Origin: a virus
Taxonomy: Duplodnaviria; Heunggongvirae; Uroviricota; Caudoviricetes
Virus record (IMG/VR): IMGVR_UViG_3300046542_000361
Length of the DNA: 51,436 bases
Direction: 5' to 3' (one strand)
Shown: positions 11,172 through 51,436 of the stretch, piece by piece
Position numbering within the stretch: the first letter of the stretch is position 1
How the letters are laid out: each line of letters opens with the position of its first letter
The notes under the pieces: generated by a model
The model's input: the letters and a program-made list of their open reading frames with translations, nothing else
What the model was told of the DNA's origin: nothing
The model's database searches: none
Translations under genes and position numbers: made by a program

Positions 11172-11791
11172 TTCGGTAGCCCCGACACGCAGATCTCGGC
11201 TTCACCCATGCGCTGGGCGTCACCCATTTCGCGGCGCTTGACCAGGCCGTCGACGATGACGCCGCCTGCCTTGTTGAACGCGGTCTGAGCCTCGCAGCCT
11301 TTGCGATAGTCGCCGGCCATATGGAAGCGGGTTGCGCTCGATCCAGCCATGCCCTTGCGGGATGCGACCGAGCCGACGCCGAAGTTATAGGCGCCGGAAA
11401 GCATTGCCGCCTGAACGCCGACCGGGAAGCTGGTGAAGCCAGGCACCTGCTTGACGAGGGGCAGATAATAGTCGCGGTAGATCTGCTCGCGGGTCATCTG
11501 CATGCATTCGGCGCGGCTGAAGCGCATGTTTGCCGTAACCGGTTTGCCGTTGATACGGGTGATGCCGGCGCAGATGTCGTAGATCTTGGCGAACCGATCC
11601 CAATGCGCCTGCAGGACCATGCCTTCCCAGGGCAGGATCAGACTATTGGTGGCGAGAATGACGGCCGGAGGTAGAACGGTCTCGCTGGTATCCTTCTGGC
11701 TATGCCAACCGAGGGATGCGGCCGCAAGAAGTGCGGCAGCGATGGCTGCTACGCCGCGGCTGGATTTGGTGATCCTATTTACGGGCATCAT
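11168..11791 (-). CDS. Endolysin, GH24 lysozyme with probable SAR anchor
   Basis: Ala-rich N-terminal hydrophobic segment; EG-x7-D...ICAGIT, AYNFGVG, GLVKRR..E. Confidence 0.88.
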   Translation of the reverse strand: MMPVNRITKSSRGVAAIAAALLAAASLGWHSQKDTSETVLPPAVILATNSLILPWEGMVLQAHWDRFAKIYDICAGITRINGKPVTANMRFSRAECMQMTREQIYRDYYLPLVKQVPGFTSFPVGVQAAMLSGAYNFGVGSVASRKGMAGSSATRFHMAGDYRKGCEAQTAFNKAGGVIVDGLVKRREMGDAQRMGEAEICVSGLPK

Positions 11792-14430: not shown

Positions 14431-17400
14431 CAGGTATTGTCCGCGATCAGAATGCGTTTGTTGTTCAGATCGACCTGCATCTTGCCGTCCGACGACTGCA
14501 GCAGACCCGAGGTGATCGTGCCGATGTTGGCTGAGATTGCCGACAGCGACGAGACCGACAATGCCGTTGCCTGGATAGTGCCGGTCTTGATGTTCGAGCC
14601 GTCGATCGTCGTGCGGCCGTAATTGGCCGTCAGATCCTTACCGCCCAGGTAGAGCGCCAGGATGACCGCGTTGGCGCCAAAAGCGACAGCCGGGTCGGTC
14701 GTTGCCGTGATAGTGTTCGCGCCCTTGACCCAGATGAGATAAAGGAAGCCGCTCGTCCAGACAGCATTGCCGGCCGTGATCGCCCTGCTGGCCGTATTGC
14801 CATCGTCACCGATGTAACGGATGGTGCCGCTCGTCCAGGCGACGCTGTTGATCGTCGGGCTGTTGTGCTCGAAATTCAGACCGTCGGTCGTGATACCGCG
14901 CATGCCGATCGTCAGCACGTTGGCGTGAACCGAGTTGGCAGCCAGCGCCCCGCCGTTGATCATGGTGGTATCGCCACCATAGCGCCAGTCAGCAAGCGAC
15001 ACGCCGCTCGAGATCTTGATCATTCCCGGCTCGATCTGGGTCGTGCCGTTGTTGATCGTGTCGGCCGGGTCGCCGCTCGCGCCGATGTCGGACAGCGGAA
15101 TATTCCCGCCGCTGGTCGCAACGATGACGCTACCCGAAAGGATCGAACCGGCCTTGATCTTCCCGGCGTCAATCTCGACGATATGGGCGCTTTCGATGAA
15201 CGCCTCGTCGATCAGCGCGAAGCTGGAGATCAGCGCGTCGGGCGGCAGATCGCCAGGATTGATAGCGCCGGCAGTCGCCGTTGCTACATCACCCCAGTCG
15301 CTCCTGTTTTCGGACGTGTCGACCGCGCGGACACGGTAGCTCCAGACGTCACCGACAGTCAGCGACGAATGAATGAAGGCCGGCGCTTGGCAGAAGTAGA
15401 TGGTCGAAAGGCCGCCCTTGGTTGCCTCGACCTCGTAAAAACTGACGTCCGTTTCGGGCGAGAGCTCCCAGTCCACCCAGATCGAGCGGAAGAGACCGAT
15501 AGCACTGGCACCCGTCGGCACCGACGGCGCCTCGGTATCGACCACAGCCTTGATCGTCAGTGCTTCGCAGAAGTCCGACACATTGCCGAGCCGATCGCGC
15601 GCCCGGACCTTGATCTCGTAGTCGAAGCCAGCAATGGCGTCGAACTCGCAGGAGTTGACGGCGACCGGCAGCACGACCCAGTTGCCGACGCCCTGTTTGA
15701 CTGCAAAGTCGTAGGCGACGACGTCAGTCTCGGCGTTTGCATTCCAGGTCGCAGAGACGCGCGCCACGCCGTCGACGAAGTCCGTCGCGACAGCCAGGCC
15801 GGTCGGCACGGCAGGCGGATCGGTTTCGAAAAGACCGGTGGTCGAGACGAGCATCGCCGGCGAAATGTTGAGCCCGGTCTTGCCAAAGGCGTCGTAGGCG
15901 GCAGCGCGGACATAATAGGTCTGCAATTCCTCGCCAGGGAACACGTAGGCGCTACCAGTGCCGTCATAGCGCGGCGTCGTCGCGTAAGGATCAAAGTCGG
16001 CCGTGGTCTCCACCCAGATCAGCACGCCGGCGAGATCGGTGTCGACCTGCGTCGGCCAGTTCAGATGAATATTGGTAACGGAGACAAAGGCGGTCGGGTT
16101 GAAGGCTGCCGGCACAGGGTTCGAAACGGAGATCGTCGCCGGGTTGCTCTCGCGTGCCAGCGTATCGGTAACAGTGACGTCGAAGCGCAGCGTGCGCGTA
16201 GGACCGGCCAGTCCCGCGCGCTTGGTGTCGGCTGCGTTCATTTCAAGCGTGTAGCCGTAGATCGTGCTCTCGACCTTCTGCGTGCGCAGCAGCGTGCCCG
16301 TGGTCGTGTCCCAGACCTTGATCGTGTTGAAGTCGTAGAAAGGGCTGCGAACATTGGCGACCGTAGCGCCGTCGGCCGTCACTGAGGTCGTGACCGGGAA
16401 GTTGTTGAACCAGGAAATGTTCGCCGTCGAGCCCGAGAAGTGGACGCCGTCTTCGCTGTCGTTGAGCTTCAGGTTGGAGACGGTCGGCGAGGCAGCTACA
16501 GCCCAGCCGGCGATCTCGTATTCGAGCGCGGCCGGCTGCGAGCGCACCGACGAGAAGCTGATCGCGTAGACATAGAAGGTGTATTCGCCCGTCGGCAGCT
16601 CGGTGATGTCGATCGAGTTGTTCTGCGTCGTGCCAACGATGTTATAGCCGCTCGTGGGCGAGAGCATCGCGACTTCGTATTCCTTCGTCAGGAAGTCGCG
16701 CGGATTCGACCAGGAGAGCGTCAGTGTCGATTTGGGCAGCCCATTTTCGAGATAGCTGACTTCATGAACCTGCAGGTTCTCGACCGGCAGGCTTTCGTTG
16801 TTCGGCCGGGTGTAGGTGGTCGGCTGCAGAACGCCGATATTCTCGACACGGAAATACTTGTTCGGATCATGGAACAGCGCCGTGATCGCGAAGATGTTCT
16901 TCTTGTCTTCCTTGATGGTGATGACGCGGTAGAGGCGCGGCTGGATATCCGTGCCACGCATGACCCACATCGAGTTGACCAGCGGCAGCTCGACGAGCTC
17001 GTCGGCCAGAACGATGCGGTCGTAACCGATGCTCTCGCCGTTCTCAAACAGCTCGTTGGCGAAGGATGCGATATCGCAGAGCTTCACCTCGCCGTTCGGC
17101 AGGGTGACGTAGACCTGGTAGGTGGCGCCGAGCGTCGGCACGAAGGGACCGTCGAGCCAGAGCTGCGTCTCCTCGGCAGCCTTCAGACGGCCGCCCAGGC
17201 GGATCTGCGCCTTGGCAGGATCGGCGATCGCGATGATGTCGCCCGGTCGAACGTCGGTCGAGTCCCAGGATGCGGAGAAGTCGACCGTCTCGGTCTCGTT
17301 CTGCTCGACATCGAGGATCCATTTGCCATAGCGATGCGCCAGGCCGCGCGACGTGCAGCCCTGCAGCGACACCTGCTTTTCGCGCCAGCCGTAGCGGCGC

Positions 17401-40858: not shown

Positions 40859-41050
40859 TCACGCGTCCACTGCCTCAACCAGGCCAAGCTGCACCGCCTC
40901 TTCCATGTCGAAGCGCAGGCTGCCGGTCGTGTCCTTGTCGAAGCCGATGATCACCTCACCGTGTTCGGTGAGGTATCGCGAGACCACGGGACCGATACCG
41001 ACTTCGGTGCCGGCCGGGATGACGATATCCCTGGTGGTGCGATAGCCCAT
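40859..41050 (-). CDS. Hypothetical protein (63 aa)
   Basis: TGATG-coupled to the upstream gene. Confidence 0.6.
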   Translation of the reverse strand: MGYRTTRDIVIPAGTEVGIGPVVSRYLTEHGEVIIGFDKDTTGSLRFDMEEAVQLGLVEAVDA

Positions 41051-41352
41051 CAGACGAGCTCCCAGTCTTCGGCGCCCATGTCGGCCTGCGAGGCAACCCA
41101 GCCGACAACCGTCGAGCCGTCGGCAGCGCGCAGGCAGAAAGACGGCATCCGGATCGTGGTGCCTTCGTCGCCGTCGGTGAAGAGATCGACGCGAACGCTG
41201 TTGATCAGATCAACACCGTTGCGAATGCTGACCTCGGTCGACCGCGGTGCTGAGCCCGGCATCAGGAAGACGAACATCTTCTTGCCATTCCAGCCGGCGC
41301 GGGCCGCCCGCTTGCCATTTTTGACTGCCTCGAGTGCTTCGCCCAAGTTCAT
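41050..41352 (-). CDS. DUF2829 / Tad2-like protein
   Basis: ALEAVKNGKRAARAGWNGKKMFVFL...GWVASQADMGAEDW. Confidence 0.85.
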   Translation of the reverse strand: MNLGEALEAVKNGKRAARAGWNGKKMFVFLMPGSAPRSTEVSIRNGVDLINSVRVDLFTDGDEGTTIRMPSFCLRAADGSTVVGWVASQADMGAEDWELV

Positions 41353-48250: not shown

Positions 48251-48706
48251 TCAGAGGTTGGAAGTGGCTTCGTTGAGACTGAGCGTCAGGACAGGCCCGC
48301 CGCACCAGAAATCACAGGCCTTGGCCGCCTCGACGGCTTCGACCGCGTTGGCACCCATCTGGATCGCGCCGTGGGCGTATTTCTTGCCAGAGCCGATCGA
48401 CCAGGTGTTGCCGAAGAGCGGGCCTGAAGGCGTATAGCCGTCGCTGTAGAGGAAGACCTCGCCGGCTGGCGTGACGTGGATCGCGTCGAAGGCGGGCTCG
48501 CCCGGCATGTCAGCCTTTCGATCGGCGCCAGCAGCCAGCCAGTCGCGAAACGCTTCCGGCATGCCGATCTGGTTCGAGGTGATGCCGACAAGCCCACCGT
48601 CGGGTAGACGGTGGATCTTGCGCTTGTTGCCGACCGGGTGTTGATCTCCACCATAGGCACGACTGTCAGCGGCCATCACGCCCTCGTGATAGACGACGAC
48701 GCTCAT
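48251..48706 (-). CDS. Ntn-hydrolase (HslV/proteasome-beta-like) protein
   Basis: MSVVVY...MAADSR...KI...SIGSG...D..CGG; ATGA overlap. Confidence 0.75.
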   Translation of the reverse strand: MSVVVYHEGVMAADSRAYGGDQHPVGNKRKIHRLPDGGLVGITSNQIGMPEAFRDWLAAGADRKADMPGEPAFDAIHVTPAGEVFLYSDGYTPSGPLFGNTWSIGSGKKYAHGAIQMGANAVEAVEAAKACDFWCGGPVLTLSLNEATSNL

Positions 48707-49032
48707 GCGGCGTCCTCGGGCAGCTTGATGCGCTTGGGCTGGAAGACAGCCCGATTGAGCCACATGAAGGCCTCCTGGATGCTCCGGCGTGCGAGCTGGA
48801 CCATTGCCTGGTCGATCTCCTGGCTATCGCGGCTACGAACATGGCGATCGACCTGGCGCAGCACGCGTTCCTCGAGCTCCTTGTTCTCGTTGACCAGCGC
48901 AACCTTCTCGTCGCTCTGTGTGGTGTAGCCAGCGACGGGCAGGGGAGTGTGAACCGCCGCGGTTACACGACCGGCGAGGGGAATACCTTCAAGCGGGAAG
49001 CCGAAGGGCAGGGAGGCGTCTTTGTCGGACAT
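48703..49032 (-). CDS. Acb2-like anti-CBASS protein
   Basis: GYTTQSDEKVALVNENKE...LARRSIQEAFMWLNRAVFQP matches the Acb2 pattern GY-x9-N-x2-K...Q-x3-M-x3-RA-x2-QP. Confidence 0.75.
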   Translation of the reverse strand: MSDKDASLPFGFPLEGIPLAGRVTAAVHTPLPVAGYTTQSDEKVALVNENKELEERVLRQVDRHVRSRDSQEIDQAMVQLARRSIQEAFMWLNRAVFQPKRIKLPEDAA

Positions 49033-49951: not shown

Positions 49952-49967
49952 TATCCGAGCGCTCGCA

Positions 49968-49987
49968 GTCAGTCAATATTGATTGAT
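49968..49987. promoter_or_regulatory. 20-bp palindromic motif A
   Basis: GTCAGTCAATATTGATTGAT. Confidence 0.7.
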
Positions 49988-49999
49988 CGAAAAGAGGAT

Positions 50000-50056
50000 G
50001 GGTAGCTTGGGCAAGGGGAATCCGGGCTGCGGGGCAGGGGAACCGGGGCGCCGGGG
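50000..50056 (+). other. Cluster of eight G-runs (G-quadruplex-forming motif)
   Basis: G3-4 runs at 50000, 50009, 50015, 50024, 50031, 50037, 50045, 50053; loops of 2-6 nt. Confidence 0.7.
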
Positions 50057-50453
50057 ATTTGGTTGACGGATCACTACCCAGGGAGAGCTGTCCGTCCCGG
50101 TGAGGCACTAGGACAGGTAGTCGATGGTCGATTTTCGCCGGGCAGCAGTGGGCATCATGCTCGCACACGTCGAAAATCTCTAAGACTTCGATCACTGACG
50201 CGCGCAACGCTTTGACAGTGACACATAGCAGCTCGAGGGATCGATCGTCGCGCTTCTGTGACACATGACACTGCTCACACGTCTATGCGTGTCAGTGACG
50301 CTCTACGAGTCAAAGCGCGCGTATCATCACATAGCAATAATCATATGAAAATAAATTCGCGATTTAGCGATTTAGCTATTGCATGACACTGCGAACTAGT
50401 GTCTAAAGAGCATGTCAACAACGACAACTAGACAACACAAGAGAGAAACGAAC

Positions 50454-51026
50454 ATGACACACACTGTCGCAGTTAACGCTTACGCACTGTCTCTGTCTGC
50501 ACGCTATGACACTGAACTCGCAGCAAAGAAGTCTGCTAATTCGCTCAACTTCATATCGAAGTGCGCGCTTGTCGTATCGCAGAAGAGCGTTGCTGACATG
50601 CTCGCTGCATGCGAAGTCAAGACAGACTTTGCGCAAGATAGCGTTCAAGCTAACAGCGCGTTCTGCATGAAAGCGCTTGAGAATTGCGCTCACATGCTCG
50701 AGTTTGCAGCAAATACGCGTAACGTCGACAAGCTGAAAAGCAACGTCGAAGAAGTGCTGCGCACGCTCGTCAACTTCAAAAAGAACAATGAGCAATTCAG
50801 CGCAAGCGACATTGAAATCGCGCTTGATAAAAACATCAAAGTCGCGAAAGAGCGTGTCGCGCTTTACTATCGTCGCAAAGACGAATTCTCTTCTGCGAAG
50901 CGACACGCTTCTATGAACATGCGCGCACTTGTTGCACTCAACTTGCTCAAAGCTGCATCGAAAGACAAATACACTGTCAACGATAACGCGATCATGCAAG
51001 CGATCGAAGCGCGCTTCGCAGCGTAG
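50454..51026 (+). CDS. Hypothetical protein lacking Gly, Pro and Trp; possible C-terminal winged helix
   Basis: 190 aa from MTHTVAV (ORF open from 50412); lies inside the GG/CC-free tract. Confidence 0.75.
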   Translation: MTHTVAVNAYALSLSARYDTELAAKKSANSLNFISKCALVVSQKSVADMLAACEVKTDFAQDSVQANSAFCMKALENCAHMLEFAANTRNVDKLKSNVEEVLRTLVNFKKNNEQFSASDIEIALDKNIKVAKERVALYYRRKDEFSSAKRHASMNMRALVALNLLKAASKDKYTVNDNAIMQAIEARFAA

Positions 51027-51029
51027 ACA

Positions 51030-51049
51030 GTAAATCAAGATTGATTGCT
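51030..51049. promoter_or_regulatory. 20-bp palindromic motif A (degenerate)
   Basis: GTAAATCAAGATTGATTGCT. Confidence 0.6.
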
Positions 51050-51070
51050 AGCGCGTCATACGCGCTAGCA
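51046..51070. repeat. Perfect 11-bp hairpin
   Basis: TGCTAGCGCGT-CAT-ACGCGCTAGCA, no U tract. Confidence 0.7.
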
Positions 51071-51100
51071 CGTCGCAACAAATCACACGAAAGCAAAACG

Positions 51101-51256
51101 ATGTTCATTCTGTATCTGCGATTAGTCGCTGCACTCGTCAATTCACGCGCAGCTAATCGAGAACTGCAGCGCGCGCTAAGAGCGCGTCACACTGCACGCA
51201 TGCGCTCGAAGCGCGTCACAGAGCAACGTCGCGCGATTGTGTCACGTTTCAATTGA
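51101..51256 (+). CDS. Small basic hypothetical protein
   Basis: MFILYLRLV..., 51 aa, no G/P/W. Confidence 0.5.
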   Translation: MFILYLRLVAALVNSRAANRELQRALRARHTARMRSKRVTEQRRAIVSRFN

Positions 51257-51267
51257 AAGCTAGAGAC

Positions 51268-51436
51268 ATGAGCAAAAGCTATAGCGCAGCGCGCGTATCG
51301 CTGACCGAGCGCGAACTAAGAGACAGACAAAAGCGACGCGCGTTCAAGACGCGTAACGCGACCGGCGATAGTGTCGAATTGCTAGATCGACGTTTCGACT
51401 ATCAGCAAATCGACATATACGAAATGCTGAATATGC
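51268..51436 (+). CDS. Hypothetical protein, 3' end runs off the window
   Basis: Open frame MSKSYSAARVSLTERELRDRQKRRAFKTRNATGDSVELL... to the window end. Confidence 0.5.
   Translation, partial: MSKSYSAARVSLTERELRDRQKRRAFKTRNATGDSVELLDRRFDYQQIDIYEMLNM

Follow-up and report, generated by a model that had tools for sequence, protein, structure and literature searches.

What could empty a single block of a genome of two dinucleotides that abound everywhere else in it? The question is raised by a 51,436-bp stretch of DNA (IMG/VR record IMGVR_UViG_3300046542_000361, referred to here as the window), which comes from a rhizosphere metagenome, is part of a Rhizobium phage-plasmid (RHEph10 group, approximately 117 kb), and ends in a tract almost devoid of GG and CC (the GG/CC desert, or island). 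A first-pass annotation, made from the sequence letters, had placed a GG/CC-free tract of about 50% GC at 50240-51305. GG and CC were recounted over the whole window, and the matches flanking the desert were found at 50238 and 51305, leaving a gap of 1,067 bp; the second-longest gap is 105 bp, and the Poisson chance of a gap of 1,067 bp is approximately 1e-57 to 1e-65. The gap was thus as annotated, but the boundaries of the tract were not. Its left edge is at 50152, and positions 50152 to 51436 (1,285 bp) contain 5 GG/CC dinucleotides versus 156 expected from base composition, the sole exceptions being GGG at 50237-50239, CC at 51305, and CCGG at 51362-51365. On the right, the desert continues approximately 115 to 125 bp beyond the end of the window, for a total of about 1.4 kb, as located with five aligned relatives and L021, a contig 93% identical to the window. 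The GC content of the island is 0.493, versus approximately 0.60 in the rest of the window. Since CG and GC are enriched (odds ratios of 1.75 and 1.85) while GG and CC are near zero (0.04 and 0.02), the pattern represents specific avoidance rather than low GC.

The island was found in 25/25 other loci examined, including isolated Rhizobium phages, a Pararhizobium plasmid, and metagenome contigs. Its carriers include RHEph10, RHph_N1_15, N2_6, Y2_11, Y2_17_1, N1_10, and the 115.6-kb Pararhizobium plasmid. Across the 26 loci, the islands span approximately 770 to 1,465 bp and have a GC content of 0.43 to 0.54, in genomes with a GC content of 0.56 to 0.62. Zero GG/CC dinucleotides are present in nine of the 26 islands, which, together with the count in the window, is the under-representation relative to composition on both strands that characterizes target-site avoidance. 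An assembly artifact was rejected because the island is carried by seven isolate genomes, one plasmid, and many metagenome contigs from several independent runs. Two of the outcomes that the first-pass annotation had named as refutations, normal GG/CC numbers on recounting and an assembly artifact, were therefore not obtained.

The ban is also old. Relatives whose first cassette gene (ORF1, see below) is 64 to 67% identical to that of the window have perfect deserts of 1,465 and 1,456 bp, and two more distant phages, B1VFA and X66, also carry deserts (851 and 768 bp) at a syntenic gene. BLASTN and BLASTP detected no similarity between the window and B1VFA or X66, and BLASTP of ORF1 against its B1VFA counterpart gave an E value of 3; the counterpart was placed informally in the ORF1 family, as a putative member, by synteny and by motifs in common with remote representatives. 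RHph_N1_15, the genome of which is complete (116.7 kb), has a single island: its second-longest GG/CC gap measures 79 bp, and none of the other dinucleotide classes gives a comparable outlier there. GG/CC sites number approximately 16,000 over the 116 kb of this complete relative.

The tract is one complete, self-contained expression cassette, comprising a control region, a leader, a gene for a predicted winged-helix protein, one or two genes for small proteins, and hairpins. Its features in the window are as follows.

50152-50453, plus strand: upstream control region and leader, about 300 bp, conserved in the six-island alignment.
50454-51026, plus strand: ORF1, 190 aa, predicted winged-helix protein, the defining gene of the cassette.
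51022-51045, no strand assigned: dispersed dyad, a candidate "operator" word with a AATCAAGATTGATT core, overlapping the ORF1 stop codon.
51046-51070, plus strand: perfect hairpin with an 11-bp stem, TGCTAGCGCGT-cat-ACGCGCTAGCA.
51101-51256, plus strand: ORF2, 51 aa, with a hydrophobic N terminus and a basic C terminus.
51268-51436, plus strand: ORF3, 64 aa in relatives, cut by the end of the window after 56 codons.

The desert coincides with a block the size of a transcription unit, and its edges are sharp across loci: it begins at least approximately 98 nt 5′ of the ATG and stops after the closing hairpin. In L021, the cassette runs 114 nt beyond the point where the window ends and closes with a hairpin, AGAGCGCGC-tttaaacg-AGCGCGCT, followed by a T-run. 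In this group, the desert extends 40 to 60 nt past the closing hairpin. ORF3, which has a basic N terminus and an acidic C terminus, contains the CC and CCGG exceptions of the window.

In RHEph10, genes of the cassette have been annotated on the wrong strand. The GenBank record of RHEph10 (L002) annotates the minus strand over both ORF1 (15258-15938, gp148) and ORF3 (15935-16099, gp147). In the six-island alignment, the variable columns of ORF1 are distributed 127:36:28 over codon positions 3:1:2, and this third-position-heavy variation identifies the plus-strand frame as the gene; the minus-strand ORF at 50415-51038, corresponding to gp148, was rejected as noncoding by the same pattern. The distribution is 35:16:13 for ORF3, which has homologs in L004, L007, and L009, and 13:8:7 for ORF2, the coding status of which is weakly supported. 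Judged by codon-position pattern, then, the plus-strand frames are the real genes, contrary to gp148 and gp147. That the tract spans coding genes, as the first-pass annotation had claimed, is borne out, and none of the three proteins, those of ORF1, ORF2, and ORF3, has a single Gly, Pro, or Trp residue. The chance of this absence in 305 residues is approximately 3e-19, given that these residues make up 13% of reference phage proteins.

The absence of three amino acids could suggest a rule acting on codons, for instance, a cassette translatable without Gly, Pro, or Trp tRNAs. This explanation was rejected because GG/CC is equally absent from codon junctions and noncoding DNA. ORF1 contains 0 GG/CC versus 58 ± 6 expected when its protein is back-translated with the codon usage of the phage, and the noncoding parts of the island contain 2 versus 41 expected. 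At the codon junctions of ORF1, 0 GG/CC are present versus 18.7 ± 3.0 in synonymous-codon shuffles that retain the protein and the island's own codon usage; for nine genes, the junction count is 0 versus 15 to 23 in such shuffles, and 0/2000 shuffles reach 0. Six islands that are 71 to 90% identical differ by at least 698 substitutions and hold 4 to 7 GG/CC each (9 in L002, with wider bounds), although GG or CC would arise from approximately 27% of point changes in general and from 29% of those that are synonymous. The accumulation of at least 698 changes without accumulation of GG/CC points to purifying selection rather than a one-off event. Thus, the rule acts on nucleotides, on both strands, and is kept by purifying selection, in agreement with the strong, specific, two-stranded selection that had been claimed from the sequence of the window.

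The ban belongs to the cassette rather than to a single gene. ORF3 is conserved. ORF2 is optional cargo, which is present in the window, in RHph_N1_15, and in the L007 lineage (where the homolog is 52% identical) and is missing from four close relatives. Other islands carry other cargo, namely a 63-aa ORF in L009 and a 124-aa ORF in L031, which are unrelated and are both free of Gly, Pro, and Trp; because unrelated cargo genes also keep the ban, it is a property of the cassette. A profile search of 1.8 billion representatives placed ORF1 itself in a family of 40 clusters (identity of 50% or less); apart from its own cluster, 39 remain, and 29 of these lack Gly, Pro, and Trp.

The AF2 model of ORF1 (pLDDT of 89 and pTM of 0.86) predicts a helical N-terminal half and a C-terminal winged helix, with a helix at residues 148-161 and a beta-hairpin wing at residues 165-175. 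Compared with solved structures, the C-terminal domain gives Z scores of 5.5 to 7.2 over 72 to 95 aligned residues, and the matches include AF1382, the kleisin-type MukF/JetA, TubR, ORC/Cdc6, and regulators of the ArsR/MarR/PadR/Fur type. ORF1 is accordingly predicted to be a winged-helix protein of the DNA-binding type, where Z scores in this range reflect a common arrangement and indicate the fold class only. No match above threshold was found in Pfam, PHROG, or PADLOC, nor a sequence match in the PDB, so no named family can be given; a Protein Atlas feature search and a PDB profile search returned nothing useful for ORF1, and its full-length matches are uncharacterized viral and proteobacterial AFDB/Atlas clusters only. 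Each phage has a paralog of ORF1 (approximately 230 aa), encoded 1.3 kb away from the island on the other strand and beyond the end of the window.

L001, 22427-23128, minus strand: ORF1 paralog.
L004, 22123-22821, minus strand: ORF1 paralog.
L007, 13947-14639, minus strand: ORF1 paralog.

The composition of the paralog is normal (GC content of 0.61, approximately 95 GG/CC, 12 Gly, and 6 Pro). The possibility that the fold imposes the composition was rejected because this normal paralog exists. ORF1 and its paralog might form a regulator pair.

The ban extends through the noncoding parts of the cassette, down to the signals. The one GG exception of the leader is the conserved GGG, which lies within GAGGGATCGATCG and is present in 5/6 aligned leaders. 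Other conserved blocks of the leader in the same alignment are TCTCTAAGACTTCG, CACAGTGACACA, TAGCGATTTAGCGAAATAGCTATTGCA, and CATGTCAACAACGAC, and the ribosome-binding region has been rebuilt without GG as GAGAGAAACGAnCATG. The word ATGACACTG occurs in three perfect copies at 50265, 50383, and 50506 (spacings of 118 and 123 bp), running from the leader into the start of ORF1, and these copies are conserved in relatives only in part. A scan for consensus sigma-70 promoters found no site, and a terminator scan found nothing above shuffle level inside the window; GTGACG-N17/18-TATCAT near 50297-50327 is a possible promoter, proposed by inspection. No known RNA family in Rfam matched the leader at an E value of ≤1. 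The hairpin at 51046-51070, which is kept in 6/6 aligned islands, achieves its GC richness by GC and CG steps alone and is not followed by a T-run. A second copy of the dyad word is present at 49964-49987, in front of the leftward operon, such that the two copies bracket ORF1. Between this copy and the left edge of the desert, the composition is reversed.

50000-50151, plus strand: GG-rich flank ("wall"), 5′ of the island in the divergent intergenic region, outside the desert.

The flank contains 0.27 GG/CC per nt versus a background of 0.14, with a G-strand bias (31 GG versus 9 CC) and a 22-nt tandem pair of G-runs at 50009-50030 and 50031-50052. A similar upstream tendency toward GG/CC richness was observed in 8/11 precisely mapped relatives. 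On the far-side flank of the islands in relatives, a CCATGG motif recurs.

Does the ban differ from the site avoidance that phages practice against restriction? The window also carries a pattern of the latter kind. GTAC is absent (0 versus 185 expected in the window; 0 versus approximately 418 in the complete 116.7-kb relative) and is likewise absent from 50-kb pieces of B1VFA and X66, TGGCCA is absent (0 versus approximately 29), and GANTC occurs at about half of expectation. The pattern is common to the window, L001, L013, L014 (complete MN988506), L002-L004, L011, L012, and L016, and in the L007/L009 lineage a few GTAC and TGGCCA are present. The island obeys the GTAC and TGGCCA bans as well. 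This is classic whole-genome restriction-site avoidance and is separate from the GG/CC ban. Ordinary restriction systems are therefore an unlikely cause of the latter, since the phage clears such sites genome-wide, and the restriction-site version of the second hypothesis of the first-pass annotation (evasion of host defenses that need GG/CC) is improbable for the same reason. The GG/CC pressure would be answered in the cassette alone because approximately 16,000 sites are too frequent to be cleared from 116 kb. As a separate observation, CTAG is depleted approximately 10-fold genome-wide (17 in the window versus 185 expected), and 6 of these 17 lie in the 1.3-kb island (4.7 versus 0.22 per kb), a number close to that expected by chance, and most islands of the relatives behave alike.

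Further information on the rule comes from islands in which it is relaxed. Each relaxed lineage has re-admitted essentially one word, listed below with its fraction, P value, and ratio of plus to minus strand.

L019: CCGG, 40/53, P = 1e-25, 20:20, in all frames and in noncoding DNA.
L020: GGCA, 17/25, P = 1e-12, 14:3.
L029: GGA/TCC, 11/12, P = 1e-7, 4:7.
L032: GGT/ACC, 10/13, P = 6e-5, 8:2.
L030: CGG/CCG, 8/8, P = 8e-4, 5:3.

The exceptions in the RHEph10 group are few and are mostly ACCG. Clear use on both strands is restricted to CCGG and GGA, and this use points to a context-dependent reader of duplex DNA. CCGG is a classic palindrome for cytosine methylation. The CCGG lineage suggests a duplex-DNA reader to which this word is invisible, either because of methylation or through a context rule of the reader's own.

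The position of the cassette in the genome bears on when it might be needed. Gene orientation in the complete relative is nearly uniform, the exceptions being the cassette, a ParA-helicase block, a RepC block, and three isolated small genes. The cassette is transcribed opposite to the lytic genes, with all adjacent genes running the other way, and has the same orientation as the plasmid-maintenance genes (the ParA block and RepC). From this shared orientation, we infer for the cassette an expression that does not depend on the lytic operons and that may take place in the plasmid state. A look-up of sequencing runs gave no RNA run with the cassette. The proposal in the first-pass annotation that the tract is first-injected DNA found no backing, as there is no sign of a virion end at the cassette: the island is mid-record in the relatives, whose records are written as circular or are arbitrarily linearized, and its orientation is that of the ParA/RepC genes. 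In addition to these features, MN988506 (L013, L001) encodes two ATP-dependent DNA ligases, a T5 A1-like protein, RtcB, and rIIA/rIIB, as well as its own sigma-70-family factor, a Pol III alpha subunit, and a RepC-type replication protein; relatives of this type are unusually self-sufficient phage-plasmids.

The explanation that we favor, and to which we assign about an even chance of being correct, is target avoidance: words built around GG/CC are the targets of a factor that acts on duplex DNA, and the cassette has been cleared of such words. Of the ideas in the first-pass annotation, evasion of a GG/CC-dependent DNA-targeting activity is the closest to it. Under target avoidance, the factor would act directly on the duplex, and a single hit would disable a transcription unit. 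Its preference for flanking bases would differ between lineages, and methylation may block it, as considered because CCGG is exempt in one lineage. The remaining approximately 16,000 sites would be irremovable, and the genes there could wait or stay silent; the sole unit that must work while the factor is active would be the cassette, rewritten without GG/CC as a "blind-spot" cassette. Candidate readers would be a host or competitor defense or silencing system, a frequent nickase, or an activity that modifies or nicks the phage's own DNA. The explanation implies that a DNA-acting reader exists and that the cassette would be expressed first or constitutively.

Several points weigh against target avoidance. 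Among ten proteins of the cassette, its neighbors, and the ParB/ABC module (see below), Pfam and PADLOC yielded no reader candidate, and we know of no enzyme class in rhizobia or these phages for which action at GG/CC has been documented. If the reader were a destructive frequent cutter, it would also hit the approximately 16,000 other sites of the phage (and those of the host, if host encoded), so the further assumption is needed that its action can be undone, is timed, or is blocked elsewhere. The ParA and RepC blocks, which are also needed in the plasmid state, are not GG/CC-free, and the adjoining anti-defense genes are of normal composition; these encode an Acb2/Tad1-hairpin protein (window 48703-49032, minus strand; E value of 2e-16) and a Tad2-like protein (window 41050-41352, minus strand; E value of 4e-23), both of anti-CBASS/anti-Thoeris sponge families. 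GGCA in L020 (14:3) and GGT in L032 (8:2) are mostly on the coding strand, and these words partly reflect one preferred Gly codon. Finally, the match between the desert and a promoter-to-terminator unit is one that we infer.

A more specific form of the proposal is possible, and we advance it tentatively. An undescribed nickase, base modifier, or DNA-coating silencer with a very short recognition word would act at nearly every GG/CC and be blocked by methylation at CCGG-like words; its owner would be the rhizobial phage-plasmids, their hosts, or their rivals. The answer to it would be an operon written in a 14-dinucleotide alphabet, which alone functions while the activity is on and which encodes the response. 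The chlorella virus enzymes Nt.CviPII (CCD) and CviJI (RGCY) read two to three bases, have context preferences, and are sensitive to methylation. No homolog of these short-word enzymes was detected in the phages with the tools used, and to our knowledge, enzymes of this type are not known in rhizobia.

Self-marking, in which the phage's own enzyme is the agent, is doubtful. It holds that virion or plasmid DNA is modified or nicked at GG/CC words, which would block host RNA polymerase until repair or dilution by replication, so that the cassette would be the sole unit readable on entry and its winged-helix protein would start the programme. If each site bore one blocking lesion, a perfect ban in the promoter as well as in the transcribed DNA would be accounted for, and the context-specific exemptions could be words that the enzyme leaves alone. 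Beside the terminase lie two ParB-N/Srx-type proteins and an ABC-type ATPase, the B1VFA record names a homolog from this module as an "ssDNA cleaving nuclease" domain protein, and the relatives encode two ATP-dependent DNA ligases, one of them approximately 3.5 kb from the island. However, self-modification by a ParB/ABC/GNAT module, the first hypothesis of the first-pass annotation, found no support in the domain analysis: Pfam identified ParB_N twice, ABC_tran, and a Tad2-like domain, gave nothing for the 138-aa and 294-aa proteins, and found no GNAT or methyltransferase domain. PADLOC gave MTase_II matches, but these are confined to the ParB-like N-domain (positions 13-154 of 436), that is, the ParB proteins match only the N-domain of fusion methyltransferases. 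No DNA-modifying enzyme or base-modification pathway gene is annotated in the complete genome, and the replication genes would themselves have to be read from marked DNA.

A rule at the RNA level is unlikely. Transcripts of the cassette, together with antisense read-through from converging neighbors, would avoid GG/CC and thereby evade an RNase or an RNA-binding protein; examples are a RegB-like cutter of GGAG, CsrA (at GGA), toxins of the MazF type, and Vipr-type GGY-gripping proteins. Site-free mRNAs are an established strategy, in which ACA-less mRNAs escape MazF and GCU-less mRNAs, such as the mqsRA operon, escape MqsR, and these systems resemble the cassette in that a few genes remain expressible while an activity disables the rest. 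The ribosome-binding region rebuilt without GG would fit such a rule, and the RtcB RNA ligase encoded by the phages hints at RNA-cleaving conflicts. The MazF/MqsR rule, however, applies to sense RNA only, whereas that of the cassette is strand symmetric: GG and CC are banned equally, and CCGG and GGA/TCC are tolerated in both orientations. It also covers apparently untranscribed upstream DNA, as the desert begins at least 98 to 300 nt 5′ of the ATG (in this group, approximately 150 nt 5′ of the only plausible promoter) and outlasts the closing hairpin at the other end.

Among the RNA-level agents, VIPR deserves separate mention. VIPR is a phage-borne, RNA-guided silencing system with GGY-motif RNAs, which aims at the lysogeny regulators of rival elements (bioRxiv 10.64898/2026.04.26.720920,.720927, and 10.64898/2026.10.15.759431). 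VIPR-like arrays were found only in L016, which has two (8 and 11 five-nt-phased GGY-NN-like units), 150 nt downstream of the island, a proximity that speaks for an RNA-level rule.

L016, 10794-10909, minus strand, and also approximately 11404-11470: VIPR vrRNA-like arrays (no search for a vipr gene was made).

No phased array of at least 7 units was present in the window or in 12/13 relatives' loci scanned, where a vipr gene was not searched for. The G-runs of the flank were rejected as vrRNA arrays, since their spacing is 6 to 9 nt with no 5-nt phase. A VIPR locus consists of 9 to 16 five-nt-phased GGY-NN repeats beside a RAMP gene (vipr), whereas ORF1 is predicted to be a winged-helix protein and not a RAMP. 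VIPR was rejected as the reader of GG/CC because its targets need neither GG/CC nor a protospacer-adjacent motif (PAM) (bioRxiv 10.64898/2026.04.26.720920), which also counts against the RNA-level rule.

PAM avoidance, another version of evasion raised by the first-pass annotation, is rather improbable. An RNA-guided system that reads CC/GG (I-F-like with CC, Cas9-like with NGG or NNNCC, or of a silencing type) would be denied targets in a lysogeny-side regulator gene, which would be neither targeted nor sampled for spacers. Genome-wide PAM depletion is documented in phages (PMC4246573; PMC12174588, for the CC PAM of I-F), cytosine methylation can blind a reader of the CC PAM (AceCas9, PMC7733487), which would fit the CCGG exemption, and guide-directed silencers aim at lysogeny regulators, as described in the VIPR papers, which would account for protection being limited to a regulator gene that is expressed. 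Nevertheless, a guide-dependent reader poses a small risk per PAM and hence exerts weak selection per site, by which a ban so perfect that proteins lose all Gly, Pro, and Trp would be hard to reach; a system of the nuclease type need only cut somewhere in the genome to kill; and exemptions set by the base 3′ of GG (GGA, GGT, and GGCA) are unlike PAM rules.

Highly improbable is a physical or mutational by-product with no reader, either a mechanical property (no A-philic steps, G-runs, R-loops, or quadruplexes) or CC-directed deamination of exposed single strands: the lower GC content of the island (0.49 versus 0.60), which would result from C-to-T changes at CC, and the contrast with the G-run-rich flanks are in its favor, but the divergence of the islands is ordinary (71 to 90% identity, mostly at third codon positions) and argues against hypermutation, the conserved GGG survives in 5/6 leaders, word-specific exemptions (CCGG and GGCA) are not predicted by a bulk mechanical property, and transcription-coupled deamination would strike one strand only.

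The cassette can be compared with early blocks of other phages. Both T5, with its first-step-transfer/pre-early region, and T7, with its early region, have a small gene block that must function before the remaining genes are available and that is known to be without certain restriction sites. These blocks lie at a defined virion end, whereas the cassette is oriented like plasmid-maintenance genes, and the T5 A1 homolog of the relatives is encoded elsewhere in the genome than the cassette. Avoidance of restriction sites and PAMs by phages is alike in that a short word is removed from both DNA strands so that a sequence-reading enzyme finds no target. That avoidance is, however, genome-wide and statistical and concerns words of 3 to 6 bp (PMC12174588, on Pseudomonas phages; PMC4246573), whereas the cassette avoids a dinucleotide, essentially absolutely, in one unit of 0.8 to 1.5 kb that has been stripped of three amino acids. 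We found no published description of an absolute dinucleotide ban over an operon; the literature shows only genome-wide statistical depletion of PAMs or motifs (PMC4246573; PMC12174588). By their titles and abstracts, none of the papers that mention RHEph10 concerns a GG/CC ban.

The phenomenon is therefore real, old, and apparently unreported in the literature, even if the reader proves mundane, and it provides a natural example of a predicted winged-helix fold written without Gly, Pro, or Trp. If target avoidance is correct, this would be the first case in which avoidance of a two-base word, rather than of a 4- to 6-bp site, has reshaped a whole operon, including its promoter region, its ribosome-binding site, its GC-rich hairpins, and a folded family of the DNA-binding type that does without glycine, proline, and tryptophan. 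Strand-symmetric word deserts, correlated with gene content, would offer a bioinformatic handle for finding such readers, and the isolated, tractable Rhizobium phages permit direct experiments. The cassette would then be the footprint of an undescribed DNA-acting factor, the specificity of which could be read from the words that it has erased, a GG/CC core with lineage-specific exemptions.

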